Position numbers and translations under genes: made by a program | Notes under the pieces: generated by a model | What the model was told of the DNA's origin: nothing | The model's database searches: none | Seen by the model: the letters and a program-made list of their open reading frames with translations, nothing else | Assembly: GCA_033852135.1 (NCBI GenBank) | Contig: JAWSVB010000010.1 | Coordinates: 152,716-216,715 of the forward strand | Reading direction: 5' to 3' | DNA length: 64,000 bases | Origin: Gammaproteobacteria bacterium | GTDB lineage: Bacteria; Pseudomonadota; Gammaproteobacteria; QZLD01 | Shown: positions 49,236-63,936 of the stretch, piece after piece | Position numbering within the stretch: the stretch's first letter is position 1 | How the letters are laid out: each line of letters opens with the position of its first letter

Positions 49236-49781
49236 CTACTTGCTTGCAAGATAAACTAAAATATCCTCTTTGAATTTTGAGGTGTCCAACACTTTTTTAA
49301 ACTCATCTACAATAGTGGTGGTTTCATCGCCAATTGTACCCTTTAAAATCTCTCGCCGTTTATTAGCGCTAGACTCTTTGTTTATCTTTTTTTGCCAACT
49401 TTGTGTAAATACCTTTGGCAAAGAGAAAGATAGGTTTAGTTGTTTTAAAAGTTCCCATTCACCACCATCAAGCCACGCCTCATCGCATGAGTGGCAAACA
49501 TCAAGATGGTTTTTAACCTTGCTGTCCATTTTATATTTTGTCATCAATTTACCGCATTTAGGGCAAGAAATAGCTGTCTTAGTATCACCAGTAGCAGATA
49601 AAGAAATATCATCTGAAAAAACAGGCTCGGCACAGCTTTTTTCTGCCCAATCACGGTAGAAGAAAAGAGGTATTAACTTACCATCACATTTATGACAATT
49701 CGCAGCCAAAAGGCCATCTTCAACTTTAGAAACTCTAAGATCAGCTTTATCACATTTAGGACATTTCATTAAACTACTCAC
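49236..49781 (-). CDS. tandem zf-TFIIB-type zinc-ribbon protein
   Basis: Two CPKC...C..C(D)xxWLDGGE-type modules (CPKCDKADL...CHKCDG and CPKCGKLMTKY...CHSCDEAWLDGGE). Confidence 0.65.
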   Translation of the reverse strand: MSSLMKCPKCDKADLRVSKVEDGLLAANCHKCDGKLIPLFFYRDWAEKSCAEPVFSDDISLSATGDTKTAISCPKCGKLMTKYKMDSKVKNHLDVCHSCDEAWLDGGEWELLKQLNLSFSLPKVFTQSWQKKINKESSANKRREILKGTIGDETTTIVDEFKKVLDTSKFKEDILVYLASK

Positions 49782-49975
49782 AATTTTATTAAGTTAATTA
49801 TTGGGTGATAGTAGCAGAAGTAACCGTGGATATTAATGTTTCAAATTATATATATTGTTGATATGATGAATTTAATAAAGAGTTATATATTCGATGTTTT
49901 TATGGAGATAAATGCATCGTTAATTGGGGTAGAAATTGATGGGGAATCATTTCTTATTTTAATCTTTAAAACCTA

Positions 49976-50698
49976 ATGTTAATGGAAGATTACATGAAAG
50001 AGTTTTTAGATATTGTTATTCAATTTCCAACCGTCATGTTCACAGTTCTACTTGGTGTTATCGTCCTGTATTGGATGTTAGCCGTATTTGGTGTGTTTGA
50101 TCTGGATGTATTGGATTTTGACTTTGATTTGGATCTCGATGCCGACGTAGACTTAGATCTGGATGCTGATGTAGGTGATGCTGGTGATACGCATACAAGT
50201 CACACTGGCATAGGTGGCTTTATGGCTGCTTTGGGATTAGTCGGGGTTCCAGTTACCGTAATTGTTAGCTTGATAGTGATGTGGTGTTGGTTACTTACGC
50301 TGCTGTATGGAGCATATTTACAACCAATGTTACCTGATTGGGGTTTGACCTGGGCTATATCTGCGGTAGTTGTATTTGTAAGTTTTATTATAAGCCTGTT
50401 CCTTACACAGTTTTCTATTAAACCTCTGCAGCCTCTTTTTGAGCATGAAGGAAAAGCTTTGGGCAATAAGGATATTGTTGGGCAACTATGCGAAGTTATT
50501 ACCGGAAGGGTAGATGATAAATTTGGCCAGGCTCGATACAACAAAGATGGCGCGGGTTTAATAATTGAAGTTAGAAATATGAGTGGAGCTGTTCTTAAAA
50601 AAGGGAATACTGCTCTTATAGTTGGTTATAGTGCGGAGAAGATGACCTACAGGGTAGAGCCGTATGAAAACAATTCGTATGAAATTGAAGTTAAGTAA
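49976..50698 (+). CDS. NfeD-family membrane protein with acidic DL-repeat insert
   Basis: TM helices plus a C-terminal OB-fold beta domain typical of NfeD partners of SPFH proteins. It has the insert DLDVLDFDFDLDLDADVDLDLDADVGDAGD. It lies immediately upstream of the flotillin gene. Confidence 0.7.
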   Translation: MLMEDYMKEFLDIVIQFPTVMFTVLLGVIVLYWMLAVFGVFDLDVLDFDFDLDLDADVDLDLDADVGDAGDTHTSHTGIGGFMAALGLVGVPVTVIVSLIVMWCWLLTLLYGAYLQPMLPDWGLTWAISAVVVFVSFIISLFLTQFSIKPLQPLFEHEGKALGNKDIVGQLCEVITGRVDDKFGQARYNKDGAGLIIEVRNMSGAVLKKGNTALIVGYSAEKMTYRVEPYENNSYEIEVK

Positions 50699-50730
50699 AG
50701 GTTGGTTGTTTCAATAACTAATAAGCGGTC

Positions 50731-50764
50731 ATACCGGCGAAGGCCGGTATCCAGTGTTTTATTT
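50731..50764 (+). terminator. hairpin between nfeD and flotillin gene (possible attenuator/partial terminator)
   Basis: ataccggc-gaag-gccggtat, then gttttatttc. Confidence 0.4.
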
Positions 50765-50830
50765 CTGGCTGCTGGATCGTCAGTATTTTTTATATAAATT
50801 TATGATTAAGTAAAAAAATAAGGAGTTAAA

Positions 50831-53032
50831 ATGGAAGGTTTGTTATCACCTGCAACTATCGGTATAGCTGTAATTGTTGCAATTGTATTTTTGATCCTGA
50901 TGGGGATATTGATAATGTTTGCCAAGTTCTTCTGTAAGGTTGAGCAGGGTAAAGCGATGATCGTAAATACCATGAAGGCAAGACCAATTGTCACCTTCAC
51001 CGGAAGACTGGTTCTACCTGTAGTTCATAAAGTTGAGGTGATGGATATCTCTCTAAAGAGAATCGTTATTGACCGTTCCGGTTCCGATGGTCTTATCTGT
51101 CGTGACAATATCCGTGCCGATATCTCAGTTAACTTTTTCGTCCGTGTTAACCCAACAGAGGAAGATGTACTGCGTGTAGCAAGTAATATCGGTTGTGAAA
51201 GAGCATCGGACCAAAAAGTACTCGATAATCTTTGGTCAGCTAAATTTGCAGAGGCTCTAAAAACAGTTGGTAAGCAGATGGATTTTGAGGATCTGTATCA
51301 AGAGCGTGAAAATTTCCGTGATGCAATTAAATCAGTTATTGGTGATGACCTAAATGGCTACAGACTAGAAGATGTTGCGATCGATTACTTAGAACAAACT
51401 CCAGTTGATAACCTTGATAGCCGCAATATTCTTGATGCGCAAGGTATCCGTAAAATTACCGAGCTAACTGCTGTTCAACATGTTGCTGCCAACTTGGCGC
51501 AAAATGATGAGAAGAAGCTGATAACAAAGCAAAACGTTGAAGCTCAAGAAGCTATTCTAGCTCTAGAGAGACAAAAAGCAGATGCAGAAGCAAAACAAAA
51601 ACGTGAGATAGAAACTACAGTTGCACGGGAAGAAGCATCAACAGCGCAGGTGTGTGAAGAGGAGCGCTTAAAATCTGTTCAGGCTAGGATTAAATCCGAC
51701 CAACAGATAGCCGTGGAAGAGGAAAATAAAACTCGTGAAGTTGAGGTTGCTGAGCAAGAGAGACTAAGAGTTCTTGCCATTAAGGAAGAAGAGGTTACTA
51801 GAGCTCGTGAGCTGGAAGTTGTAGCGCGTGAGAAAGAGGTTGCGATTCAGCAGATCGATAAAGAGAAAGCGGTTGAGCAGCAAAAAAGAGAGATTGCTGA
51901 TGTTATTCGTGAGCGTGTATCGGTTGAGCGTACAGTAGCAACAGAAGAAGAGAAGATAAAAGAGGTCAGAGAGGTAAGTGCTGCAGAAAGAAGTAAGCAG
52001 GTTCAGGTGATGCAGGCACAAGCTATCGCTGAAGAGCAAATGGTTAAAGAGGTCAAAGCAGCAGAAGCAGCAGAAAAAGCAGCTAAATTTGAAGCGCAAA
52101 AAGAGATCGCACTGGCTGAGGCAGAGCTTGAGTCTAGTTCTAAACTGGCAGAATCGAAGAAGGTTCTGGCAGAAGGTACACAGGCTGAACAAGCTGCTAG
52201 CGGTTTAGCAGATGCCAGGGTGAAAGAAGCTCAAGCTATTGCACTGGAAAAATATGGTAGATCAGAGGCTGATGTTGAATACCAAAAACTTTCTGCTCGT
52301 GCCAAAGGTAACGAAGAAGAGGGTATGGCCAAGGTCAGGGTTCAAGAGTCTGAAGCAAAAGTTATTAAAGAAAAAGGCGCAGCAGAAGCGTTTGCAACTC
52401 AGCAATCACTTGAAGCAGAAGCTAGCGGTATTAAGGCTCAAGGCCTTGCTGCTGTTGACGTTAAGCGTGCAGAAGCAGATGCAGTTGAACTGCAAGGTAA
52501 AGCAGATGCAGTTGCAATCAGAGAGAAATATCAAGCTGAAGCCAAAGGTCTGACTGAGAAATTCCAGGCACTTAATGGACTGGATGAAAACGGTCGCAAG
52601 CATGAAGAGTTCAGAATCGAACTTGAGAAAAACAAAGAGATTCAACTTGAAGGGATTGAAGCACAGAAAGTGCTTGGTGAAGCTCAATCTAAGATTCTGG
52701 CTGATGCCTTCCATGATGCAAATATCAACATCGTTGGTGGAGATGGTGCATTCTTCGATCGCTTTGTTAAGGCAGTATCTTTGGGTAAATCGATTGATGG
52801 CGTGGTAAACCACAGTGAGACAATCCAAAATGTTGCTGGTGATTATGTTAATGGCGATAAGGATCTGCTGGGTGATATTAAAGAGGTTCTAACTAACTCT
52901 AAGATGTCATCAGAGGATATAAAAAATCTGACCATGTCTGGAGCACTGGCTAAGTTTATGAAAGGTGGGGCGGATAAAGATCAGATCAACGCTCTGTTAG
53001 CCAAGGCAAAAGAGATGGGATTGGGTGAATAA
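50831..53032 (+). CDS. flotillin-like SPFH/Band-7 protein (YqiK/FloT-like) with very long EA-rich coiled coil
   Basis: 733 aa. An N-terminal TM helix is followed by an SPFH domain, then about 400 aa of E/A/K/Q-rich coiled coil and a C-terminal globular part. Confidence 0.85.
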   Translation: MEGLLSPATIGIAVIVAIVFLILMGILIMFAKFFCKVEQGKAMIVNTMKARPIVTFTGRLVLPVVHKVEVMDISLKRIVIDRSGSDGLICRDNIRADISVNFFVRVNPTEEDVLRVASNIGCERASDQKVLDNLWSAKFAEALKTVGKQMDFEDLYQERENFRDAIKSVIGDDLNGYRLEDVAIDYLEQTPVDNLDSRNILDAQGIRKITELTAVQHVAANLAQNDEKKLITKQNVEAQEAILALERQKADAEAKQKREIETTVAREEASTAQVCEEERLKSVQARIKSDQQIAVEEENKTREVEVAEQERLRVLAIKEEEVTRARELEVVAREKEVAIQQIDKEKAVEQQKREIADVIRERVSVERTVATEEEKIKEVREVSAAERSKQVQVMQAQAIAEEQMVKEVKAAEAAEKAAKFEAQKEIALAEAELESSSKLAESKKVLAEGTQAEQAASGLADARVKEAQAIALEKYGRSEADVEYQKLSARAKGNEEEGMAKVRVQESEAKVIKEKGAAEAFATQQSLEAEASGIKAQGLAAVDVKRAEADAVELQGKADAVAIREKYQAEAKGLTEKFQALNGLDENGRKHEEFRIELEKNKEIQLEGIEAQKVLGEAQSKILADAFHDANINIVGGDGAFFDRFVKAVSLGKSIDGVVNHSETIQNVAGDYVNGDKDLLGDIKEVLTNSKMSSEDIKNLTMSGALAKFMKGGADKDQINALLAKAKEMGLGE

Positions 53033-53056
53033 ACAACCTGTCTGATTGTAGTATGT

Positions 53057-53162
53057 GTAGGGTGGGCGCTGTTTGTAGTCGAAGCTCCCACCAATTTAAG
53101 TTTTACCAAATTACATGGTGGGCAGTGCCCACCCTACCTATTGTTTAATTTATGTAGGGTGA
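53057..53162. repeat. cluster of REP-like palindromes (GTAGGGTGGGC ... GCCCACCCTAC) after flotillin gene
   Basis: gtagggtgggcgc at 53057 pairs with gcccaccctac at 53128-53138. There is an internal perfect hairpin ggtgggca-g-tgcccacc and a further partial copy gtagggtg at 53153. Confidence 0.6.
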
Positions 53163-53211
53163 ATTGCTGATAATGATTTGGTATTAAGGATATTCAAGCA
53201 GGAGTCCAACT

Positions 53212-56200
53212 GTGAGTTCAGCAGTTTCCAATACAGACCAGCAAGAGCAAACCTTAGAATCAGGTGGTGTCTATAATGTTATTCGTAAGCGGCTTGAGGA
53301 GCATGGTTCCAGTCTTAATGATAGAGTAAGTGCTTTAAATACTCAAAGGGAGGATGCCTTTGGTAGCACAAATATCACTGTACTTGGATCGTCTCGTGTC
53401 AGAACTGAAAATAACTGTATTGCCCGTGATATTGTTTGTGTTGGTGATCTATTCCTATTTGGTTATAACGTTTATATTGGCTTAAAAACCGAGACCAAGG
53501 TAAGTGATGTTTTTAGCCTTTATCGGCAGCGTAATCAAGAGGATGAACTAGAGCTAGATCATGTACCGCTTGAGGGAACATTTCTTGATGATTCAGATTT
53601 TGTAACCGATTTTAAAGAGCTATACCAATACTATAAAGATTCAAAACTGGTTCAGTTAAGGCGAGGCATTAAAGGCAAATTGCTGGCAATATTCCAGACC
53701 GGTAGCGCAATCACAGATCAGAAGGTTTTTCGCTGGCAAGTATCAGCAGATGGTGAAGTTACATATATAGATAATCGTGGTGAGAACGATAATATAGTTC
53801 CTGAATCTCACGACTTTGAGTGGACCTTTACCACCAGAGATGACCACGTCCGTGGCAAACATTCCCATATAAACATCTTGGATGAGGTTTTTGTTGAAAC
53901 CATTGGTGGTGATCTAACTATTAAGGTGGAAGATAATACCGATGATGGCCAGGGTATATATTCAGAACTAGTAGATGATCCAAATCAGTCACTGCAAGAT
54001 GCTCAGATAGCTTACGCAAAACTTGGAACCCTTATACTGCTAAAAATCAGGCCGTATAAGGAGAAGGATTGGCGTTACCTTATCTACAATAGTCGTGCGC
54101 AAAAAGTAAAAAGAATTGACCAACTTGGTTTGTCAGCAATTCAGTTACCAGAGGATCATGGTGTTATCTTCCCTGGTGGATATTACCTGCAAAATGGTGA
54201 GTTTAAGATTTACGACACCAATGTCGATGATATGTATTTTCTGCGCTCTATCATCTCGCCAAATGGTGAAGATGTTATGTATGTCTTCTACCATTATGAG
54301 GAGGGGCGCTTTGTTCTCCTCTCGTATAATTTAATTCGTAAAGAGTTAGAAAAACCTGTTGTCTGTAATGGTTATGGCCTTTTGGAAAACGGTCATATGG
54401 CAGTATTCCGTGAGCAGAGTCAGGATCCTACCAGAATACATAATCTGCAGTTGTGGCAAACTCCATTCGTGACAGAGGAGTTTGTTGATAAAAATGCCCA
54501 GGAAAACGATTCTGTATTTACCAAAATAGGTAACCCAGATCTGGTTCGTGCAATATCCGATATGTTTAGCGTTTGCAGATCTATAGATAACCAAGAGCCA
54601 ACCTTGGCAAGCTATGAAGATCTAATCGGTTCAATCACCAGAATTATTGATGCATATCATTGGTTATCCAATAGTGAGATTGGCAACTTTGTTGAAGAAC
54701 TAAATCAGATAAGCGCAACTGCTGAACAAGTATTAGATGAGTTCGAAAAAGTTGTAGCTATCAAGAAGCAGGCAACAGAAGCTGTAACCAAGGCTAAAAC
54801 TGAACAAGTAAAACTTATTAAAGAGGTAAAACTTGGAGATTGGTCGACCATAGAGGGTTATATCAATGCCCTAGCTAGATTAAGAACCCAGCGTGGCAAT
54901 CTGATAACTATAAAAGATCTACGCTATGTTGATCTTGAGTCGGTAAAAAGTTTAGAAAATGATGTAATTGAAGCCTTTGATCATGTAAGTAGAAACACCG
55001 TTGATTTTCTTCTTAAAGATGATGCATTCACTCCATATATTGATTCTATAGAGCAGCAGAGTGAACAGATAAACGAGATTAAAACCAGAGTTGACCTAAA
55101 GCCGGTAATTGAAAAACTTGAAGAGATTGGGGAAGGTCTCTCATTATTGACCGAGGTTATTAATCAGCTGGAGATTGAAGATACAACCTCCAGAACTCAA
55201 ATCTTGGAAGGGATATCATCGCTATTTGGAAATCTTAATAAGACCAAGGCAGCAGCAGACATACGCTGGAAAGAGATAGGTAAAAAAGAGGATGTGGCGG
55301 AATTTGGCGCCCAGTTCTTGCTGCTATCTCAAAGCGTATCTAGCGCTATCTCCATGTCCGATACACCAGAAAAGGCAGATGAGAACTTATCCCGCTTATT
55401 GCTGCAGCTAGAAGACCTTGAAGGGCGCTTTGGTGAGCATGAACAATTTGTAGCCGATCTCACCGAAAAAAGGGAGGAGATCTACTCAGCCTTTGAGAGT
55501 AAGAAACAATCATTGGTTGAGCAAAAGCAAAGTAGAGTGCAATCACTTGCTAACGCAGCCGATAGAATTATTGCTGGCATAACTCGTCGGGCAAAAACCA
55601 TAAAAAGTATTGATGAGCTTAACGGCTATTTTGCATCCGACCAGATGGCTCTTAAAGTCAGAACTATAGTTGAACAATTGCGTGAGCTGGATGATAACGT
55701 CAAAGCCGATGATATTGAGAGCAAAATAAAAACTGCACTCGATAGATCGATTCGTTCGCTGCGCGATAAGATAGATATCTTTGCTGACGGTGGAGACACC
55801 ATAAAACTTGGTACCCATAGCTTTAGTGTAAATACGCAAGAACTTGATCTAACCCTGCTATCGCGTAATGATAAACTGGCATTGCATCTTACAGGTACAG
55901 ATTACTACCAAGAGATTGAAGATGAGGCATTAAATGCTGCTCAGGATTATTGGTCACAAACCATAGTATCTGAAAATGATGATGTATATCGTGGTGAATA
56001 TCTAGCATCCTCAATCTATTTTGATGCCGAACATGCAACCAATGGCACCACTCTGGCAGACCTACGTAAGTTAATTACGCAAGAGGATGCCCTAGATCAG
56101 TTTGTAAAAGACTACGCCGCCTCAAGATATGATGAAGGTTACGAGCGGGGTGTGCATGATCATGATGCTGCCAGAATCTTAGAGAAATTACTCTCTTTAA

Positions 56201-58482
56201 AAGAAACGACGGGTCTATTAAGTTTTAGCACAGTTGCCAGATCATTAGCCCTACTATTTTGGGTTTACAGCAAAGGCAATATAACTCGAGAACACTGGCA
56301 GCTACAATGCAGTGGTTTTGGAAAGATCGCAGATTTCTTTGGTGATAGTCCAGATATCGTTGCACTAAAGTCAGAGTTGTCTCAGGCAATTGAAAAGTTC
56401 TTACAGCATGAAAATATTAACTACAGTGAATCGGATCTAAAGATTGCAGGATCCTATCTTGTAGAAGAGCTAAAGCAAGATAACTTAGCTTTTGTGATAA
56501 GTGGTAAGGCAGATGACTTAGCCAATCGATTGCTAACTTATTTAGATCGTAAGAACCAATTGCAAAGCTTCGAAGCCAGCATAAAAGATCTGGATGGAGC
56601 TGTATCTAATCAGGTGCGCTTGGTTGTAGGTTGGCTCAATGGCTTCTTAGGAACCCTTGATGAGAATAAAGCGCAAACACTGGCAAAGTACACCCTAGAG
56701 GCGGCAGTGTTTCTGTTAATTCGCGATAAGGCAGAAAGGCGAATAAGTGATGCAGTTACCGTAGCTCAGATAGATGGGTTATTGGGGCAGCACAATATAA
56801 TTGAAGATCGCAAACTTACAGTTGACCTACCGGAGTTTATTCAACGCCTAGCGGCATATCATAATACCGTTGTTCCGGGATTCAGACAGCTACGCGAGCT
56901 AAAAACCAATATCACCAAAGCAGAGCGAAATTCACTGCGAGTAGATGAGTTTATCGCGCAAGAGCTAACCTCATTTGTGCGTAATAAACTTATTAACGAT
57001 GTTTACCTCCCCCTTGTCGGCACCAACCTTGCCAAACAGATGGGAACCGTAGGTGAAAATAAACGTACCGATCTTATGGGAACACTGCTACTTATATCGC
57101 CACCTGGATATGGTAAGACCACCCTGATGGAATATATTGCCAATCGAGTTGGGTTGGTGTTTATGAAGATAAACTGCCCAACCATTGGTCACTCAGTAAC
57201 CTCTATTGATCCTGAGGAGGCGACCAGTGCTGCGGCAAAACAGGAGTTAAATAAGCTCAATCTAGCCCTGGAGATGGGGAGCAACGTGATGCTCTATCTT
57301 GATGATATTCAGCATACCAATCCCGAGTTCTTGCAGAAGTTTATCTCCCTCTGTGATGCGCAAAGAAAGATAGACGGTGTATGGCGAGGCAATGCTAAAA
57401 CCTACGATCTGCGTGGTAAAAAGTTCTGTGTCATCATGGCTGGAAACCCATATACAGAATCGGGCGAAGCATTCAAAATACCAGATATGCTTTCTAATCG
57501 TGCTGATGTATATAATCTAGGTGACGTATTTAGCGGTAATGAAGATATCTTCAACCTAAGTTACATTGAAAATGCGATGACATCTAATAGTGTTCTCGCT
57601 CCGTTAGCATCACGCGAGATGGATGATTTTTATGCATTTATCAAGATGGCGCAGGGCGGCCAAATAGCCACAAACGCGCTGAAACATAATTACTCTGGTG
57701 CTGAAGTAAATGAGATTGTAGCGGTGTTAAAGCACCTGTTTACAATTCAGAGCGTGATATTAAAAGTAAATTCGCAATACATCGCATCTGCATCCCAGGA
57801 TGATGCTTATAGAACCGAGCCACCATTCAAACTGCAAGGCTCATATAGAAATATGTGCCGCATGGCAGAAAAAGTAGTGGCAATAATGAATCAGGAAGAG
57901 ATAGATCAACTGATTCTGGATCATTATATTGGTGAAGCACAAACCCTGACCACCGGAGCTGAAGAGAATCTACTCAAGCTGGCGGAGTTACGCGGCTTAA
58001 TGTCTCCAGAGCAAGAGCAGCGATGGGGTGAGATCAAAAAGACCTATAGCAAAAACCAAAGTATGGGTGGAGATGAAGACCCGGTAACTAAAGTTGCAGG
58101 TCAGTTAAACCTACTTTCAGGTCAAGTTGATGGAATCAAGTCTGCAATACTCACAGCGTCTGATGCTAATAACTCACCGCAGATCGAACTATTGGAAAAG
58201 TTTGATAACACCATGGAGCTATTGGCCAAAATGCAGCTACAGGTTCAAGTGACAAATCAACCAGTGCCAGGTCTGGAACCACTACTTGGAACTATGGCCT
58301 CAACTATCGAAGGGTCATTGCTGCCTGTTGTAAAAGCGATGGAGCATAAGTTAAGACTCGACCATGATATCTGGGATACCCTAAATGGTGTGGTGAAAGA
58401 GCTAAAAGGGATAGATAAAGAAAGATTCGGTAAGTTAGAGATGAATAAAGAGGTGCGTGGAGTCTTTGACCCGAATGAGTAA
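53212..58482 (+). CDS. giant (1756 aa) coiled-coil protein with C-terminal MoxR/AAA_5-like ATPase module; function unknown
   Basis: One uninterrupted ORF. Walker A LLLISPPGYGKTT is at nt 57101-57124 (aa ~1297). Walker B VMLYLDDIQH is at nt ~57286-57315. A sensor-like stretch CVIMAGNPYTESGEAFKIPDMLSNRADVYNLG resembles MoxR/RavA/dynein-type AAA_5. The N-terminal ~1250 aa have no motif I recognise, with predicted coiled coils around aa 480-560 and 700-820. Confidence 0.8.
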   Translation: MSSAVSNTDQQEQTLESGGVYNVIRKRLEEHGSSLNDRVSALNTQREDAFGSTNITVLGSSRVRTENNCIARDIVCVGDLFLFGYNVYIGLKTETKVSDVFSLYRQRNQEDELELDHVPLEGTFLDDSDFVTDFKELYQYYKDSKLVQLRRGIKGKLLAIFQTGSAITDQKVFRWQVSADGEVTYIDNRGENDNIVPESHDFEWTFTTRDDHVRGKHSHINILDEVFVETIGGDLTIKVEDNTDDGQGIYSELVDDPNQSLQDAQIAYAKLGTLILLKIRPYKEKDWRYLIYNSRAQKVKRIDQLGLSAIQLPEDHGVIFPGGYYLQNGEFKIYDTNVDDMYFLRSIISPNGEDVMYVFYHYEEGRFVLLSYNLIRKELEKPVVCNGYGLLENGHMAVFREQSQDPTRIHNLQLWQTPFVTEEFVDKNAQENDSVFTKIGNPDLVRAISDMFSVCRSIDNQEPTLASYEDLIGSITRIIDAYHWLSNSEIGNFVEELNQISATAEQVLDEFEKVVAIKKQATEAVTKAKTEQVKLIKEVKLGDWSTIEGYINALARLRTQRGNLITIKDLRYVDLESVKSLENDVIEAFDHVSRNTVDFLLKDDAFTPYIDSIEQQSEQINEIKTRVDLKPVIEKLEEIGEGLSLLTEVINQLEIEDTTSRTQILEGISSLFGNLNKTKAAADIRWKEIGKKEDVAEFGAQFLLLSQSVSSAISMSDTPEKADENLSRLLLQLEDLEGRFGEHEQFVADLTEKREEIYSAFESKKQSLVEQKQSRVQSLANAADRIIAGITRRAKTIKSIDELNGYFASDQMALKVRTIVEQLRELDDNVKADDIESKIKTALDRSIRSLRDKIDIFADGGDTIKLGTHSFSVNTQELDLTLLSRNDKLALHLTGTDYYQEIEDEALNAAQDYWSQTIVSENDDVYRGEYLASSIYFDAEHATNGTTLADLRKLITQEDALDQFVKDYAASRYDEGYERGVHDHDAARILEKLLSLKETTGLLSFSTVARSLALLFWVYSKGNITREHWQLQCSGFGKIADFFGDSPDIVALKSELSQAIEKFLQHENINYSESDLKIAGSYLVEELKQDNLAFVISGKADDLANRLLTYLDRKNQLQSFEASIKDLDGAVSNQVRLVVGWLNGFLGTLDENKAQTLAKYTLEAAVFLLIRDKAERRISDAVTVAQIDGLLGQHNIIEDRKLTVDLPEFIQRLAAYHNTVVPGFRQLRELKTNITKAERNSLRVDEFIAQELTSFVRNKLINDVYLPLVGTNLAKQMGTVGENKRTDLMGTLLLISPPGYGKTTLMEYIANRVGLVFMKINCPTIGHSVTSIDPEEATSAAAKQELNKLNLALEMGSNVMLYLDDIQHTNPEFLQKFISLCDAQRKIDGVWRGNAKTYDLRGKKFCVIMAGNPYTESGEAFKIPDMLSNRADVYNLGDVFSGNEDIFNLSYIENAMTSNSVLAPLASREMDDFYAFIKMAQGGQIATNALKHNYSGAEVNEIVAVLKHLFTIQSVILKVNSQYIASASQDDAYRTEPPFKLQGSYRNMCRMAEKVVAIMNQEEIDQLILDHYIGEAQTLTTGAEENLLKLAELRGLMSPEQEQRWGEIKKTYSKNQSMGGDEDPVTKVAGQLNLLSGQVDGIKSAILTASDANNSPQIELLEKFDNTMELLAKMQLQVQVTNQPVPGLEPLLGTMASTIEGSLLPVVKAMEHKLRLDHDIWDTLNGVVKELKGIDKERFGKLEMNKEVRGVFDPNE

Positions 58483-58537
58483 CTCTTGGTTTATTTCTAT
58501 TCGTTACTCCGCTCTGCTTAAAAATGTATAAACACAT

Positions 58538-58635
58538 CCTCGTTCCCACGCTCTGCGTAGGAATGCATACTGGATTTAATATAGGGGCAAGGCTCTGAAC
58601 TCTCGTTCCCACGCTCTGCGTGGGAATGCATATGG
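58538..58635. repeat. two direct REP copies (cctcgttcccacgctctgcgtRggaatgcata) upstream of the RAYT gene
   Basis: Copies are at 58538-58574 and 58600-58635. Each contains the palindrome cccacgc-tct-gcgtggg. Confidence 0.8.
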
Positions 58636-58644
58636 GATAAAAAT

Positions 58645-59175
58645 ATGGGACGAAATAGATATAATTTCACAGAGAAAAATTTACCTCACTTTATGACGTT
58701 TACAGTGCTTCATTGGATTCCTATATTTACACGCCAATCGACAGTGGATATTGTTTTTGACTCACTTAGATACCTTATGAATGAAGGTATGAGAGTTCAT
58801 GCTTATGTAGTGCTTGAAAACCACTTACATCTAATATCCCAAAGTGAACAATTAAGTCGGGATGTTTCCCGCTTTAAGTCTTATACAGCTAGAAGATTGA
58901 TTGAATATTTGGAAGAACACAATGTTAGTAGAATATTGGATCAACTCAAGTTTTATAAAAAAGCCCATAAACCTGATAGGGCTTATCAGTTTTGGGAGGA
59001 AGGTGTTCATCCTGAGTGGATACAAAATGAAGAAATGATGCGGCAGAAAATTAACTATATTCACGATAATCCGGTTAAACGCGGGTATGTTGATTTGCCA
59101 GAGAATTGGCGTTATTCAAGTGCTAGAGCTTATAAAGGTCAAGAGAGTTTGCTAGAGGTAGATAGGTTTTGGTAA
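58645..59175 (+). mobile_element. REP-associated tyrosine transposase (RAYT, IS200/IS605-like TnpA_REP)
   Basis: 176 aa. An HxH-type motif (ENHLHLI) and a catalytic Tyr region (RYSSARAY) typical of Y1 HUH transposases. It is flanked by inverted REPs. Confidence 0.8.
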
Positions 59176-59180
59176 GTAAG

Positions 59181-59213
59181 TATGCATTACCACGCAGAGC
59201 GTGGGAACGAGAG
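59181..59213. repeat. inverted REP copy (tatgcattaccacgcagagcgtgggaacgagag) downstream of RAYT
   Basis: Reverse complement of the upstream REP with one mismatch. It completes the REP-RAYT-REP (REPtron) unit. Confidence 0.8.
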
Positions 59214-59698
59214 TGATGTCTCCTGAGCAGGAGCAGCGATGGGGTGAGATCAAAAAGACCTATAGCAAAAACCAAAGTATGGGTGGAGATGAAGATCCGG
59301 TAACTAAAGTTGCAGGTCAGTTAAACCTACTTTCAGGTCAAGTTGATGGAATCAAGTCTGCAATACTCACAGCGTCTGATGCTAATAACTCACCGCAGAT
59401 CGAACTTTTGAAAAAGTTTGATAACACCATGGAGCTATTGGCCAAAATGCAGCTACAGGTCCAGGTGACAAATCAACCAGTGCCAGGTCTGGAACCATTA
59501 TTGGGAACCATGGCCTCAACTATCGAAGGGTCATTACTACCTGTTGTTAAAGCGATGGAGCATAAGTTAAGACTCGACCATGATATCTGGGATACCCTAA
59601 ATGGTGTGGTGAAAGAGCTAAAAGGGATAGATAAAGAAAGATTCGGTAAGTTAGAGATGAATAAAGAGGTGCGTGGAGTCTTTGACCCGAATGAGTAG
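59201..59698 (+). CDS. free-standing second copy of the giant protein's C-terminal 160-aa module (duplicate of 58000-58482); intact ORF
   Basis: The 483-nt stretch 59216-59698 is about 97% identical to 58000-58482. Identity begins exactly at an in-frame ATG and ends exactly at the stop codon. 14 of about 15 substitutions are synonymous (one E to K). The track ORF's extra N-terminal residues MGTRV are read out of the REP. Confidence 0.6.
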   Translation: MGTRVMSPEQEQRWGEIKKTYSKNQSMGGDEDPVTKVAGQLNLLSGQVDGIKSAILTASDANNSPQIELLKKFDNTMELLAKMQLQVQVTNQPVPGLEPLLGTMASTIEGSLLPVVKAMEHKLRLDHDIWDTLNGVVKELKGIDKERFGKLEMNKEVRGVFDPNE

Positions 59699-59829
59699 CA
59701 GAGTAAAAATAGTAATTAGTCTGTTTCTACTTTCAGTATCGATGTTGTCTGCTGCAAATGAAGTAGAGAATAAATTTATCCATGCAGGTCTTTACAAATT
59801 AATGCCTTGGTAAACAATGGTTAAGATTG

Positions 59830-60279
59830 CTAGTGTTGATCTTTGGGTGAATTAGAAATTATCCAGAACCTATCATCAAAATACTTTTCTAAGCATGGTT
59901 TTACATAATTCCAACTTAATCCACCACCCCCACATCCAGGGCGTGGAATAATAACTTTGCTCCAGCCATTTTTATTAACCATTGAAACCAATTCTTGGCA
60001 GGATTTCTCAATTATTTTTAGTTCAGGGTTCTCAAATGAACTGTTTTCTACCGGAAAGCTGATCAATCCATCAATTACTTCATAAACCTGTATTCCACTT
60101 TCCAGAATCAGGGTTCCCAGTTTTTGAGGGAGATCAGGAAAACGGTCTTTAGCTTGTCTAGCACAACCCCTTGGCATTGAGCATTTGCCTTTTTTGCTAA
60201 CAGCACCTGCTGTTGTTATAACAACAGGATGTTTACCAAAGTAATCCCAGATATTTCCCGTTATTTCATTCATTTGCAA
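59830..60279 (-). CDS. stand-alone macro-domain protein (DarG/TARG1-like ADP-ribose binding/hydrolysing fold), putative
   Basis: 149 aa. The N-terminal ITGNIWDY...[30 protein letters not shown] parallels the macro-domain segment GDLF...VNTVNxVGVMGKGIAxxFKxxFP. The C-terminal glycine-rich loop [14 protein letters not shown] parallels the macro-domain diphosphate-binding loop. Assigned from memory of family consensus, not from a search. Confidence 0.45.
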
Positions 60280-60312
60280 TTACCAAAAAAAGTTAAAGAA
60301 GATTTTAGTTTA

Positions 60313-60347
60313 GACCGAAGGTGCGATTGTTGATTGCGATGTTATGG
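60313..60347. repeat. partial copy of islet repeat (gaccgaaggtgcgattgttgattgcgatgttatgg)
   Basis: Matches the 3-prime conserved half of the repeats at 60776-60845 and 61339-61414. Confidence 0.6.
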
Positions 60348-60638
60348 AACACAACTTCTAACAATGAGCGAACATGATAGATGCTTTGTATTAGCAACTG
60401 GGTAACGCCACAATCAAATGAAAATCCAGTTTACAATAAAACTAGAACGAAGGCACGTTGGCCTTAAAAGATAAGGAAAACAAATCAGAGCTTAAGCTTG
60501 CAATCCCTTTTAACCCATCTGATAAAGTGCCTATCAACAACTGGTAATGCTATGAATTGCCCTACTCCAACCCAAGCTGAGCATTGGGATGAGAACTTAA
60601 AAGCACAATTGGTGAAGTTGCCTGAGACAGATATTTTG

Positions 60639-60662
60639 AATTGTTCAGGCGCCTGAACAATT
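60639..60662. promoter_or_regulatory. 24-bp perfect palindrome aattgttcaggcgcctgaacaatt
   Basis: Perfect dyad symmetry inside a 570-bp ORF-free stretch. Confidence 0.4.
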
Positions 60663-60775
60663 GAACTTGAGATTGCAAGATAAGCGATAGGAAAGTAAAG
60701 ATGCTAAGGCAGTAATTTGAACTTGAATCTACGATTTAACCAACTAAAAGAGCTTTAAGATAAATGATGCATAAT

Positions 60776-60845
60776 GCCCGCGATAACCGCTTGCGGTTTG
60801 AAGTCCAGTGCGTGAAATGCACGATGGTTGATTGCATTGTTAGGC
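60776..60845. repeat. islet repeat copy B (~70 nt, multi-hairpin) abutting stop codon of 60849-61316 gene
   Basis: gcccgcgataaccgcttgcggtttgaagtccagtgcgtgaaatgcacgatggttgattgcattgttaggc. It contains the hairpins ccgcttgcgg and cgtgaaatgcacg. Confidence 0.7.
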
Positions 60846-60848
60846 TTA

Positions 60849-61316
60849 TTAAGTAACATAATTTATTTGACCGTTATCGGATATAAAACCAAAACCCGTA
60901 ATTACTCCGCTACTACACCAACCGGGTAAAACATATTTACAGTCCCATTTTATTGGAAAGACATCCAAACGCTCAAGGCCTAAAGCATTATAAAAAGACC
61001 TCAAATACAATTCATCAGGCGCACTCATACCTTCCCAAAAATTAAACTTTTGTTCACCTACGAATATTAATGGTTGGCTATCAGGGAGTTCTTCCTCTGG
61101 GCAAACATATCCACAAAGGGTTTTACCATTAGCTAACTTAAACTCAGCAATAGCAACATACATCGACATAGTTTGAGAAAGTTCTTGTTCAGTCCCACTT
61201 TGAACAGACGCTTCATCTATTGCTCCGTCATCATCTTCAGAGAGGTATATCCACAGTGGATAATCCTTAAGATCACTTTCAGTTAGATCATATACTTGTT
61301 TAACCACCTTTTTCAT
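60849..61316 (-). CDS. hypothetical protein (155 aa), acidic N-terminus, no recognised family
   Basis: ORF only. It is tightly packed between islet repeats A and B. Confidence 0.45.
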   Translation of the reverse strand: MKKVVKQVYDLTESDLKDYPLWIYLSEDDDGAIDEASVQSGTEQELSQTMSMYVAIAEFKLANGKTLCGYVCPEEELPDSQPLIFVGEQKFNFWEGMSAPDELYLRSFYNALGLERLDVFPIKWDCKYVLPGWCSSGVITGFGFISDNGQINYVT

Positions 61317-61338
61317 CGGTATATCCTATAAGCATAAC

Positions 61339-61414
61339 GCCCGCAATAACCGGCGAAAACCACTTGCGGTTTTGAGTCCAGTGCCGAAGGCACGATGGTT
61401 GATGGCGATGTTAG
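61339..61414. repeat. islet repeat copy A (~76 nt) overlapping stop codon of DUF4262-like gene
   Basis: gcccgcaataaccggcgaaaaccacttgcggttttgagtccagtgccgaaggcacgatggttgatggcgatgttag. The hairpins are aaaaccacttgcggtttt and gtgccgaaggcac. Confidence 0.7.
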
Positions 61415-61857
61415 TTTTCATACAGTTGAGGTATAAACCATGTATAGTCTTCTGGTGCACCTGAATCCCAGGGCCATACACCAGATGTGCTTGGATATAT
61501 TAGCTGCAGTACTTTGAAAGAATCGCCTTTATAAAGCCATTTTGCCCAACCAAAATATTCTTGATAGTGCTTTTTTTCAACTTCTTTAAATGTTACTTCA
61601 AATTCATCAAGGAACCCAGAATAGTATTTGTTTGCTTCAAATACTACACCTGATTTTACTCTGTTGTTATATTCATTAATCAGCCAGTGAGCTATTTCAT
61701 GGTTGAGACCGGTGATTATTATTTCTGGTTGGTTTGTATTTTTTTCGATGCCAATAGAATAGGAAAACCTAGGGTATTGGTCTTCTTCCATTATATGAAT
61801 GATATGGCAGCCATATTCTTTTATATCACTTAATGCTCTTTCTTCGTTTTTATCCAT
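61411..61857 (-). CDS. DUF4262-like protein (family often found as immunity-type genes in toxin/defence islands)
   Basis: 148 aa. The segment EYGCHIIHIMEEDQYPRFSYSIGIEKNTNQPEIIITGL matches the conserved DUF4262 core as I recall it (GCHV..V......PFAYTVGL....PELIVFGL). Confidence 0.5.
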   Translation of the reverse strand: MDKNEERALSDIKEYGCHIIHIMEEDQYPRFSYSIGIEKNTNQPEIIITGLNHEIAHWLINEYNNRVKSGVVFEANKYYSGFLDEFEVTFKEVEKKHYQEYFGWAKWLYKGDSFKVLQLIYPSTSGVWPWDSGAPEDYTWFIPQLYEN

Positions 61858-61885
61858 GAGCTACCTTTTGAAAACTAACTTGTAT

Positions 61886-61920
61886 TAGACGTCGACGTTA
61901 TACGTCGAAAACGACGTCTA
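61886..61920. promoter_or_regulatory. nested palindromes with three GACGTC cores upstream of the DUF4262-like gene
   Basis: tagacgtcg...cgacgtcta form 9-bp outer arms. The inner palindrome is cgacgt-tat-acgtcg. Confidence 0.4.
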
Positions 61921-62149
61921 GACCCTAAAATAATTTATTATTGACGATTTTTTATCGACACTCACTGAATTTACCCCTTAAGTACGAGTATTACAATTTA
62001 TGTGTCATATTTCTAGTAACCTAATTATTTTGGTAGGTTATGGGGTAGCTATCTATTTTGATCTTTAATATCTCTTTACCACATATTAAATTAATTATTC
62101 AAAATTTTGCTTACCAGTAAAATCAATTTATAATTCTCCCTCTTAAAAA

Positions 62150-62944
62150 ATGAGCATAATTATGAAACTCGCAGCATGCGTTGAATATGATGGAACTGAT
62201 TTCCACGGTTGGCAAACCCAAAATTGTGGGTGCCGCACTGTGCAAAGCGAGGTTGAGGCTGCACTGTCTATAGTTGCAAATTCACCTGTTTCAATAACAT
62301 GTTCTGGCAGAACTGATGCTGGAGTTCATGGTTATGGTCAAATCATTCACTTTGAGACCGAAGCGGTAAGAAATGAACGCAGTTGGATATTAGGGGTAAA
62401 TTCAAATTTACCGCGCGATATTGGAGTTTCATGGGTTAAACCTGTTAAAGAAGATTTTAATGCACGTTTTACTGCGTTGTCGCGTCGTTACCGTTATGTG
62501 ATTTATCAGTCTATGGTAAGGCCAGCAATTTTACGCAGCAAAGTAGCATGGAGTCTTAGAAATTTAGATGCCGATGCAATGCATGAAGCTGCGCAAGTTT
62601 TAATTGGTGAGAAGGATTTTTCTAGTTTTCGCGCCGCTGGATGCCAAGCTTCCCACCCAAGACGTGAAGTACAATTTGTTAATGTAAGCTCTGCAGGTGA
62701 TTTTACTTATATCGATATTCAGGCCAACGCTTTTTTACACCACATGGTGCGTAATATTGCAGGTGTTCTGATGAAGGTTGGTGATGGGAGAAAGAGTATT
62801 GGTTGGGTTAAAGAGGTATTAGATGCTAAGTGTAGGACAGCTGCTGATATTACTGCTCCAGCTCAAGGGCTTTATTTTGTTTCGGTAAAATACCCGGAGG
62901 AATACTCTATCCCTGAGTCTCCACTGCGGACTATATATAGTTAA
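62150..62944 (+). CDS. truA: tRNA pseudouridine(38-40) synthase TruA
   Basis: 264 aa with the N-terminus KLAACVEYDGTDFHGWQ(TQ) and a catalytic Asp region (GRTDAGVHG). Confidence 0.93.
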   Translation: MSIIMKLAACVEYDGTDFHGWQTQNCGCRTVQSEVEAALSIVANSPVSITCSGRTDAGVHGYGQIIHFETEAVRNERSWILGVNSNLPRDIGVSWVKPVKEDFNARFTALSRRYRYVIYQSMVRPAILRSKVAWSLRNLDADAMHEAAQVLIGEKDFSSFRAAGCQASHPRREVQFVNVSSAGDFTYIDIQANAFLHHMVRNIAGVLMKVGDGRKSIGWVKEVLDAKCRTAADITAPAQGLYFVSVKYPEEYSIPESPLRTIYS

Positions 62945-63303
62945 ACTGTTCTTCTTTTAACACATTCAAACCAGTAATCAGCTAACTTATCATTGTGCGG
63001 TACACCGTGCCCGGTTTGATACATTCTTGCTAATAGCAGCTGAGCAGGGGAGAACCCTTCTATTGCTGACATTCGATAGTAGAACGCAGCCTTATCAATA
63101 TCTTCATCATAAACTGCATATTTCTCAATCCGCTTTGCTATCTCATAATTTGTTTTACCAGAACTAATCTCAACCTGATTGCTTCCTGATAGGTGCTCTT
63201 CGATAAATGCTGTTACTAATGTCATCTCTTTCTCCTTTGGGCACATATTGTGGAGTACATAACCATGCGTAGCATGGAGTATGCCAATGATCTGCGAAGG
63301 CAT
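62941..63303 (-). CDS. Sel1-like/TPR repeat protein
   Basis: 120 aa with the Sel1 consensus AQLLLARMYQTGHGVPHNDKLADYWF. Confidence 0.6.
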   Translation of the reverse strand: MPSQIIGILHATHGYVLHNMCPKEKEMTLVTAFIEEHLSGSNQVEISSGKTNYEIAKRIEKYAVYDEDIDKAAFYYRMSAIEGFSPAQLLLARMYQTGHGVPHNDKLADYWFECVKRRTV

Positions 63304-63396
63304 TGTTTATAAGGTTCTGCTAATATATAGCGGGAGATGAATTCAAAACTTTAATAGATATTTAAAATAAATAGTTGTTTTTTTGACGCAGGAGTT

Positions 63397-63936
63397 TTAT
63401 TTGTGTTTTGCAGTACGTTTCTTAAGCCTGATTTCACGACGGTTTTTCCAATGGCGAATGATATGGGCGCGCCAGATAAGCTTAATTGCGAAATAAGAAA
63501 CTGTTGCAAAGAATAATCCGGAAAGAATAGAGCCAAGATAAAGTGGCTTCCAGATTTCAATAAGCTGGGTTGTAAACCATTCAGAGGTTAGCTCAATGCT
63601 AAATTCACTTGGCGGCACCCCTAATATCCATGCACCTAGTTTATAGGTTGGGTAAAAAATTGGTAACCAAGTGATAGGGTTAGATATCCAAACCAAAGCA
63701 ACAGATAACGGCATATTCATTCTAAAAATCAAAGCAAGTACTGCGGCTAGCCCCATCTGAAAAGGCATAGGCATAAATGCCGCGAATACTCCGATCCAAA
63801 ATGCTCCTGCAACAGAATGACGATTTAGATGCCAAAGGTTTTGGTCATAGATTCGTTCTCCAAGAAAATCTAATTTTCCATGCTTTCTAAACTCATGTGG
63901 TTTAGGCAGGTATTTTTTTAAGAAATTTCTCGGCAT
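63397..63936 (-). CDS. DUF2062-family inner membrane protein
   Basis: 179 aa. The basic N-terminus is followed by 3-4 TM helices, a topology typical of DUF2062. Family assignment is tentative. Confidence 0.5.
   Translation of the reverse strand: MPRNFLKKYLPKPHEFRKHGKLDFLGERIYDQNLWHLNRHSVAGAFWIGVFAAFMPMPFQMGLAAVLALIFRMNMPLSVALVWISNPITWLPIFYPTYKLGAWILGVPPSEFSIELTSEWFTTQLIEIWKPLYLGSILSGLFFATVSYFAIKLIWRAHIIRHWKNRREIRLKKRTAKHK

Follow-up and report, generated by a model that had tools for sequence, protein, structure and literature searches.

A degenerate chromosomal integron very probably explains a small-gene islet beside truA in an uncultured marine gammaproteobacterium

A stretch of 64,000 nt from an uncultured marine gammaproteobacterial lineage (GenBank assembly GCA_033852135.1, contig JAWSVB010000010.1, positions 152,716 to 216,715; hereafter the window) carries an islet of three short minus-strand open reading frames (ORFs) separated by structured repeats. 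The islet is flanked by a gene for a transposase associated with repetitive extragenic palindromes (RAYT; 58645-59175) and by truA (62150-62944). Lying at about 59792-62118, it is very probably a degenerate chromosomal integron, in formal terms a set of clustered attC sites without an integron-integrase (CALIN), in which the repeats are attC sites and the ORFs gene cassettes. It is an ordinary but well-preserved representative of a known kind of element, here in a new lineage, and not a new kind of system. A preliminary description of the sequence had offered integron cassettes as one of several options, and this option is borne out by the architecture of the repeats, by reciprocal covariance models, by a cassette signature and by the link to a related locus, contig L009.

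In an integron, the substrate of the integrase IntI is the folded bottom strand of an attC site, which is recombined with attI or with another attC; the crossover lies between the G and the TT of the R' box. A promoterless ORF is excised together with its attC as a circle and is inserted at attI. Read along the minus strand, the islet begins beside truA with an attI-like site and what is left of the integrase promoter region, followed by up to five cassettes, each with a terminal attC. Counted from attI, these are a DUF4262 gene, a gene for a 155-aa protein, two gene-less remnants and a macro-domain gene. The three minus-strand ORFs described earlier are present in the ORF list of the window at 59830-60279 (149 aa), 60849-61316 (155 aa) and 61411-61857 (148 aa). 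From the truA side to the distal end, the features are as follows.

62036..62055, plus strand: possible last trace of the intI start
61897..61999, plus strand: platform remnant (intergenic/promoter region between attI and intI in L009)
61870..61930, minus strand: attI-like site, an inverted CTAA/TTAG simple site with ACGTC motifs repeated upstream
Gene 61411..61857, cassette 61878..61338, minus strand: cassette 1, DUF4262 gene, 148 aa, its ends given by the attI crossover and the R' of attC1
61332..61416, minus strand: attC1, 85 nt, the sole fully preserved site
Gene 60849..61316, cassette 61337..60775, minus strand: cassette 2, 155-aa gene of an unannotated family
60769..60845, minus strand: attC2, 77 nt, damaged
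60406..60768, minus strand: cassette 3a, no long ORF
About 60403-60462, minus strand: decayed attC at the end of cassette 3a
60266..60347, minus strand: attC3, full-length, decayed
59830..60279, minus strand: cassette 4, macro-like domain gene, 149 aa, a stand-alone domain with a probable start ATG at 60273
59814-59837, minus strand: putative decayed 5' half of a last attC (AACACTAGCAATCTTAACCATTGT), overlapping the macro gene stop
59691..59791, plus strand: left junction, the 5' fragment of a Peptidase_M15 gene interrupted by the islet at 59791

The core of the repeat has three matches in the window, all within the islet, where shuffled sequences are expected to give 0. A covariance model built solely from the islet repeat family (R1) detected attC1 at 61416..61332 (98.1 bits, E 3e-27), attC2 at 60845..60769 (48.6 bits, E 5e-12) and attC3 at 60347..60266 (16.6 bits, E 0.03), with no fourth match below E 0.3 in the window and none beside the RAYT gene. 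Within the window the repeat is confined to the islet, contrary to the refuting condition of many unrelated intergenic sites named in the preliminary description. The earlier length of about 70 nt has to be corrected to units of 85 and 77 nt. What had been taken for a partial copy at 60313-60347 belongs to the full-length, decayed attC3, of which it forms the 5' half and which runs into the start of the macro gene, and a short match at 60445-60464 is part of the further decayed copy at about 60403-60462. In attC3, the 5' half is intact (CCATAACATCGCAATCAACAATCG) and the 3' half is mutated to GGTAATTGCAAATGAATGA, now carrying the start codon of the macro gene; its local alignment score of 52 was reached by 0 of 500 shuffles (15.6 +/- 2.9). 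The site at the end of cassette 3a scores 28 (shuffles 16.6 +/- 2.9; reached by 3/500), and the remnant at 59814-59837 scores 25 against the attC consensus, a value that 9/500 shuffles reach. This suggestive last remnant may mark the distal end of the array. As described earlier, the copies abut or overlap the upstream stop codon: that of the DUF4262 gene lies inside the first repeat box, and that of the 155-aa gene lies 3 nt before the repeat.

Fourteen copies of the family were collected, from metagenome contigs identical to the window (L001-L004) and from three gammaproteobacterial metagenome-assembled genomes (MAGs) retrieved by a pattern scan. In the window and in contigs L002, L005, L008, L009 and L014, the copies sit at the 3' ends of ORFs, on the coding strand, spaced by one cassette, and this placement holds in five loci of the three MAGs. 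These observations bear on the possibility that the repeat is a generic intergenic element of the repetitive extragenic palindrome (REP) or miniature inverted-repeat transposable element kind, perhaps spread by the RAYT transposase, and that the three genes are ordinary chromosomal ones. The repeat is indeed short, structured and intergenic, and the RAYT gene (NCBIfam REP_Tyr_transpos NF047646, 91 bits) lies 650 bp from the islet. However, the repeat is restricted to the islet in the 64 kb of the window, its copies are always tied to ORF ends one ORF apart, its ends behave like cassette crossovers (see below) and the islet genes are absent from relatives. This explanation is already largely refuted, and we regard it as very improbable.

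The anatomy of the repeats is that of attC sites. Each lies on the coding strand where its ORF ends and is laid out as R''(7)-spacer-L''(one bulged base)-variable centre-L'-spacer-R'(7), with a short and unpaired first spacer. The criteria used for attC were R'' RYYYAAC and R' GTTRRRY at the ends and a total length of about 57-141 nt; the repeats, at 85 and 77 nt, end in AACTAAC...GTTATGC (attC1) and GCCTAAC...ATTATGC (attC2), with at most one departure from the consensus per box. One-base departures are also seen in true attC sites, such as GTTGTGC in aadA2, and the bulged C of the islet repeats shares its model column with that of aadA2. Written as its coding (minus) strand, attC1 is AACTAAC-AT-CGCCAT(C)AACC-ATC-GTGCCTTCGGCAC-TGGACTC-AAAACCGCAAGTGGTTTT-CGCC-GGTT-ATTGCG-GGC-GTTATGC. 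The centre consists of two short hairpins linked by an invariant TGGAC, and hairpin 1 covaries (GTGC/GCAC versus GCGC/GCGC). Among the 12 full-length copies, 85% of the cells pair in the proposed structure, compared to 30-42% with slid partners; changes on both sides occur at eight pairs, and pairing in the L box reaches 92%, 2 of its pairs covarying. Arrays of related contigs also contain longer attC sites, a second class of about 135 nt that alternates there with the class of 85 nt (L009 527-662, 1582-1717, 2148-2282 and 3128-3263; L005 3835-3969).

True attC sites were obtained from 39 kb of three class 1 integron plasmids, fetched via their integrase. On these plasmids, R1 ranks the genuine attC sites belonging to aac(6')-IIc, aacA4 and aadA2 first, second and third (E 4e-5, 2e-4 and 0.011, respectively), found on the cassette strand and end to end. 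In the reciprocal search, a model of five true attC sites read off class 1 plasmids (R2) ranked the islet repeats first (attC2, E 0.009) and second (attC1, E 0.53) in the window, with the same ends, the E-values of this five-site model being modest. By itself this result, from a substitute for the IntegronFinder model, is indicative and not decisive, but such agreement in rank, strand and boundaries is hard to obtain by chance, and the search with R1 in the other direction is clear. In the attC of arr-3, both arms are near base-for-base like those of attC1 (GCATAAC-AAAGCC-ATCAAAC ... GTTTAT-GGCGGC-GTTAGGC versus AACTAAC-ATCGCC-ATCAACC ... GGTTAT-TGCGGGC-GTTATGC). A gapped attC pattern matched nothing in JGI metagenomes, and a pattern for the 3' arm matched 58 loci there, about half of them chance matches within genes. 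About 25 plain long-stem metagenome attC sites, retrieved by the 3' arm alone, share the 5' arm of the window repeat too, and one of these plain long-stem sites, L063, adjoins the 5' end of an intI.

Since the crossover falls between the G and the TT of R', the outer bases of R'' are expected to be complementary to the start of their own cassette and not to the adjacent flank. Across 16 cassettes of six arrays, a mean of 6.1 of 8 outer bases is complementary to the own cassette start, against 3.4 of 8 for the adjacent flank. Within the window, the complementarity amounts to 7/8 for the DUF4262 cassette (start (G)TTAGTTTTC, R'' GAAAACTAAC) and 6/8 for the 155-aa cassette (start (G)TTATGCTTAT, R'' ATAAGCCTAAC). 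The conservation of the attC family ends at ...GCGGGCGTT. Two cassettes of L009 look like duplicates, with identical R'' and start flanks.

On the truA side, the first cassette is preceded by the attI-like site, which reads ...GACGTCTAATACAAG/TTAGTTTTC; judged from the sequence, this site would have served as attI, with a putative crossover (slash) between 61879 and 61878. It aligns with the site between the array and an intI pseudogene in L009 (ACGTCTAATAATAG/TTAGAACGC) and resembles attI1 of a class 1 plasmid (GCCCTAAAACAAAG/TTAGAC). Contig L009, from MAG BHT14_PHBH_gam1, has at least six attC sites of this family, in two length classes and on one strand, divergent from the pseudogene. The latter lies directly beyond the array on the opposite strand and is 47.7% identical to residues 15-185 of IntI1 (E 4e-48; TIGR02249, 4.6e-35); it contains an in-frame stop, and a rhuM-family gene cuts it short, so that only its N-terminal part is left. 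Among its best relatives in the databases (62-69% identity), all those that carry a name are called integron integrase, except for two JGI 'XerD' labels. Used as a query for an intact integrase of this clade, the pseudogene retrieved nothing above this 62-69%, and no cognate intact IntI.

Window positions 61897-61999 are homologous to L009 3693-3793, the spacer between attI and intI, with a local alignment score of 41 compared to 21.7 +/- 2.7 for shuffles (maximum 32). Promoter-like hexamers (TTTACC-16-TACAAT, 61970-61997) are conserved in both. No promoter facing the cassettes was found above chance, promoter and terminator scans being at chance level. Further on, 62036-62055 (GGTTATGGGGTAGCTA) was compared by eye with TAATGGGGCTGCTA at the intI start codon region of L009; it might be a last trace of the intI start, the rest of the gene beyond it having been deleted, although this is a weak reading. 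No integrase similarity was found by tblastn and phmmer with IntI1 (a query 100% identical to annotated intI1) in the window, including 2.1 kb beyond the attI end. An IS91-family element (Y2 transposase and tyrosine recombinase, L005 4689-6676) is inserted in the cassette array of contig_35 of BHT14_PHBH_gam1. Its tyrosine recombinase was considered as a candidate IntI and rejected, as it accompanies the IS91 transposase; a database search with this recombinase as query gave no other matches.

In the definition of Cury et al. (2016, PMC4889954), attC sites make up a CALIN when two or more of them lie together within 4 kb and an integron-integrase is lacking. In the islet, the two strong sites are 571 nt apart and the three decayed ones lie within 1.6 kb, and the 64-kb window holds no integron-integrase. 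The divergent intI of a complete integron is missing, and the relative L009 keeps only the N-terminal pseudogene. Given the attI-like site and the spacer homologous to that between attI and intI in L009, the islet is very probably what is left of an integron after deletion of its integrase gene. Instead of decaying in place, the array might stem from an integrase encoded elsewhere that inserted cassettes off-target into a secondary site, or from a rearrangement that separated it from a larger integron, both of which are among the listed routes of CALIN formation (Cury et al. 2016, PMC4889954). Such an origin would fit the small arrays found at unrelated sites of a related MAG (L008 between csiV and a histidine kinase gene, L014 by an enoyl-CoA hydratase gene) and the polymorphism of the locus in the population, but the proximal end of the window array has the attI-like site and about 100 nt of spacer homology. 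As insertion at a secondary site would not bring the platform along, it is more likely that intI was lost in place or that a fragment of the platform was transferred, and we consider the off-target or rearrangement origin quite unlikely.

Several observations weigh against the assignment as a degenerate integron. The window has no integrase, so no activity can be claimed, and about 2 kb of sequence was covered on the truA side of the array. Of the attC sites, attC2 has a 10-nt deletion that fuses hairpin 2 to L' as well as a mutated crossover G (ATTATGC for GTTATGC), and three further sites (about 60403-60462, attC3 and 59814-59837) are decayed; in contig L002, which has the same cassette, attC2 is an undamaged site of 95 bits. 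Model R2 comprises five sites, with attC1 at E 0.53, and the assignments of the attI-like site and of the promoter region lean on the likeness to one relative, L009. As to structure, hairpin 2 has no double-sided changes in the 12-copy alignment, single-copy folding energies are unremarkable (z -0.3 to -1.5) and RNAalifold favours another local pairing for the 3' arm. Because of these last two results, the structural case rests on covariation and on the comparisons with true attC sites.

None of the relatives examined (L086, L087, L088-L090 and L091) has the islet next to truA. Among these relatives its genes are not core genes, contrary to the other refuting condition named in the preliminary description. 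In L088-L091, whose TruA is 77-80% identical, fimV lies directly upstream of truA. The closest MAG, L086, lacks the whole stretch 49677-62118 and has an MCP gene followed by truA after 70 nt. In L087, the giant gene is followed by the Peptidase_M15 gene and then truA; by blastn, L087 358-933 corresponds to window 59216-59791 and L087 1563-3420 to window 62119-63928. Since the window retains only about 35 codons, the first ones, of the Peptidase_M15 gene, the islet was placed at 59792-62118, the extent also given by the blastn comparison. This gene (D-Ala-D-Ala dipeptidase family) lies upstream of truA at L087 833-1504, and window 59691-59813 retains its signal-peptide end only.

The locus also varies in cassette content. 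Contig L002 has a different third cassette past the intact attC2, a 153-aa ORF (L002 1117-1578) whose product matches nothing in Pfam and, in PADLOC, resembles a CARF-HEPN model only marginally (E 0.0024). Moreover, Logan contigs end 3 nt past the attI crossover (L094 start, window 61876) and, at the two ends of L003, within attC1 (window 61392) and on the border of a decayed attC (window 60481). These breaks are suggestive of, and consistent with, alternative junctions in the sampled population.

Regarding the cassette products, the 148-aa protein matches Pfam PF14081 (DUF4262) over profile positions 1-126 of 127 (142.5 bits versus a threshold of 28, E 1e-41), so that the DUF4262 resemblance noted earlier extends to a full-length domain; the 'immunity-like' character ascribed to it is supported by no tool result, PADLOC giving one marginal effector match (E 0.0067). 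The single literature match for DUF4262, a preprint on Shedu (bioRxiv 10.1101/2023.08.10.552762), names the Shedu hallmark nuclease domain 'DUF4262', probably a slip for DUF4263; it was not used and should not be taken to tie the DUF4262 gene of the window to Shedu.

The 155-aa protein has no match in Pfam, NCBIfam or PADLOC. Described earlier as an orphan, it has no close relative but itself, although an exhaustive HMMER search retrieved 280 representative clusters of distant relatives at E<=1e-3. AlphaFold2 predicts its structure with a mean confidence (pLDDT) of 96.5 with the alignment and 37 from the single sequence. There is no sequence match in PDB, and the model has no significant fold match in PDB or BFVD. 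The contig of its closest relative (44% identical) bears a canonical attC-like site on the same strand.

No long ORF lies between attC2 and attC3. Cassette 3a contains a 52-aa plus-strand ORF (60498-60656) and a perfect 15+15 nt palindrome at 60636-60665 (TTGAATTGTTCAGGC followed by GCCTGAACAATTGAA). Window 60549-60694 is 83.6% identical to part of an L009 cassette, and the 52-aa ORF has 70% identity over 33 aa by tblastn. The segment 60498-60665 may represent a structured element or else a small gene in reverse orientation.

The assignment of the 149-aa product to the macro domains stands at the superfamily level, with matches to DarG in NCBIfam (1.5e-9, 37.6 bits versus a cutoff of 250, residues 72-136 only) and PADLOC (5.5e-10), and to TARG1/OARD1 (2e-4) and DarG macro domains in PDB. 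It shares with DarG and TARG1/OARD1 the core macro-domain sequence, including the G-C-G loop region. In the alignments, it has Glu at the position of the Lys of TARG1/DarG and Gly at that of Asp125 of TARG1, residues whose roles were reportedly established by Sharifi 2013 and Jankevicius 2016, the Lys being the catalytic one. Unlike DarG, it is only 149 aa long, with neither the DarG C-terminal domain nor a DarT neighbour. The earlier idea of a DarG/TARG1-type enzyme that reverses ADP-ribosylation is therefore not supported, given the two replaced residues and the lack of a DarT-like partner ORF in the islet; the protein may bind or process ADP-ribose by another route.

These results also concern the idea of a toxin/immunity or anti-phage defence islet, in which a DarTG-like module would be accompanied by immunity genes and the repeats would be terminators or regulatory RNA structures. 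The macro gene does match DarG models and a terminator-like pattern overlaps the 3' arm of attC1, but no DarT-like or other partner ORF is present in the islet, the DarG match is far below its cutoff and limited to the macro core, and apart from the marginal DUF4262-gene match PADLOC is empty for the other two genes. Furthermore, an Rfam scan of 58-64 kb at E<=1 gave no match, and the properties of the repeats are those of attC sites. As an account of the repeats this explanation is refuted by the attC comparisons, and we give it scarcely any credence. A preprint (bioRxiv 10.1101/2024.07.02.601686) reports integron cassettes that carry defence systems; individual cassettes of the islet may likewise encode defence or counter-defence, which is compatible with an integron.

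Taken as a degenerate integron, the islet can be compared to known systems. With CALIN (PMC4889954) and degenerate sedentary chromosomal integrons it shares the attC density, the lack of a nearby integrase, the mutual similarity of the attC sites and a small chromosomal array of short cassettes, mostly of unknown function, that varies between relatives. Most CALIN have no recognisable platform trace, whereas the window array has retained an attI-like site together with part of the promoter region of intI, which is why an origin by loss of intI can be argued; as a further difference, several of its attC sites are visibly decaying. Compared to class 1 cassette attC sites (arr-3, aadA2, aacA4, aac(6')-IIc), the box order, the bulged base in L'' and the GTT crossover are alike and the models recognise each other, but the centre is formed by two TGGAC-joined hairpins and not by a simple stem. 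Unlike class 1 integrons, the array carries no resistance genes and lies on neither a plasmid nor a transposon.

The Vibrio superintegron, with its VCR repeats, has lineage-specific, highly similar attC sites after each short ORF and tens to hundreds of cassettes, many of unknown function. The window array is similar in the first respect and in its many unknown cassettes but comprises only a handful of them, and no intact integrase was found in the window or in the retrieved related MAG loci. With a REPtron (REP plus RAYT), the islet has in common short structured intergenic repeats with a RAYT gene close by; in contrast to a REPtron, there are only a few copies, all of them within the array, where they are linked to the 3' ends of ORFs and delimited by cassette crossovers, and the RAYT-linked repeats differ in sequence. 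The preliminary description had suggested a hotspot next to a REPtron, but the RAYT gene with its repeats is a separate insertion, the attC model having no matches near it.

The 12.4-kb stretch 49677-62118 comprises a 240-aa ORF, a 733-aa ORF, the 1756-aa giant gene (DUF3686, DUF7902 and AAA ATPase), the RAYT gene and the integron remnant. PADLOC 2023 recognised no known defence system in it, including the giant-gene module. A 165-aa ORF after the RAYT gene (59201-59698) reproduces the last 161 codons of the giant gene (57997-58479) at 98.8% identity; a segment of about 500 bp is therefore present in two copies, one on either side of the RAYT gene.

As to the history of the locus, intI has been deleted here, as shown by the lack of integrase similarity anywhere in the window. 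The two attI-proximal attC sites keep the required architecture, and the distal sites have decayed. With intI lost, the array could change only through an integrase supplied from elsewhere or through homologous recombination. It is conceivable, though rather unlikely, that the integrase-less array is still exchanging cassettes in the natural population by means of such a foreign integrase, and that the attC subclass, in which two covarying hairpins and the invariant TGGAC between them form a three-way junction, is specialised in function for one integrase or host factor, its centre being more than a neutral variant.

Reading the islet as a degenerate integron explains three hypothetical genes and their odd repeats as integron cassettes and allows the boundaries and the history of the element to be stated. 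It documents integron decay, with intI lost and attC erosion growing with distance from attI, and it defines a clear attC subfamily with a branched centre. Finally, two of the cassette proteins are noteworthy: one belongs to a confidently folded family without annotation or solved relative, and the other is a macro domain that stands alone and carries Glu where the catalytic Lys would be expected.

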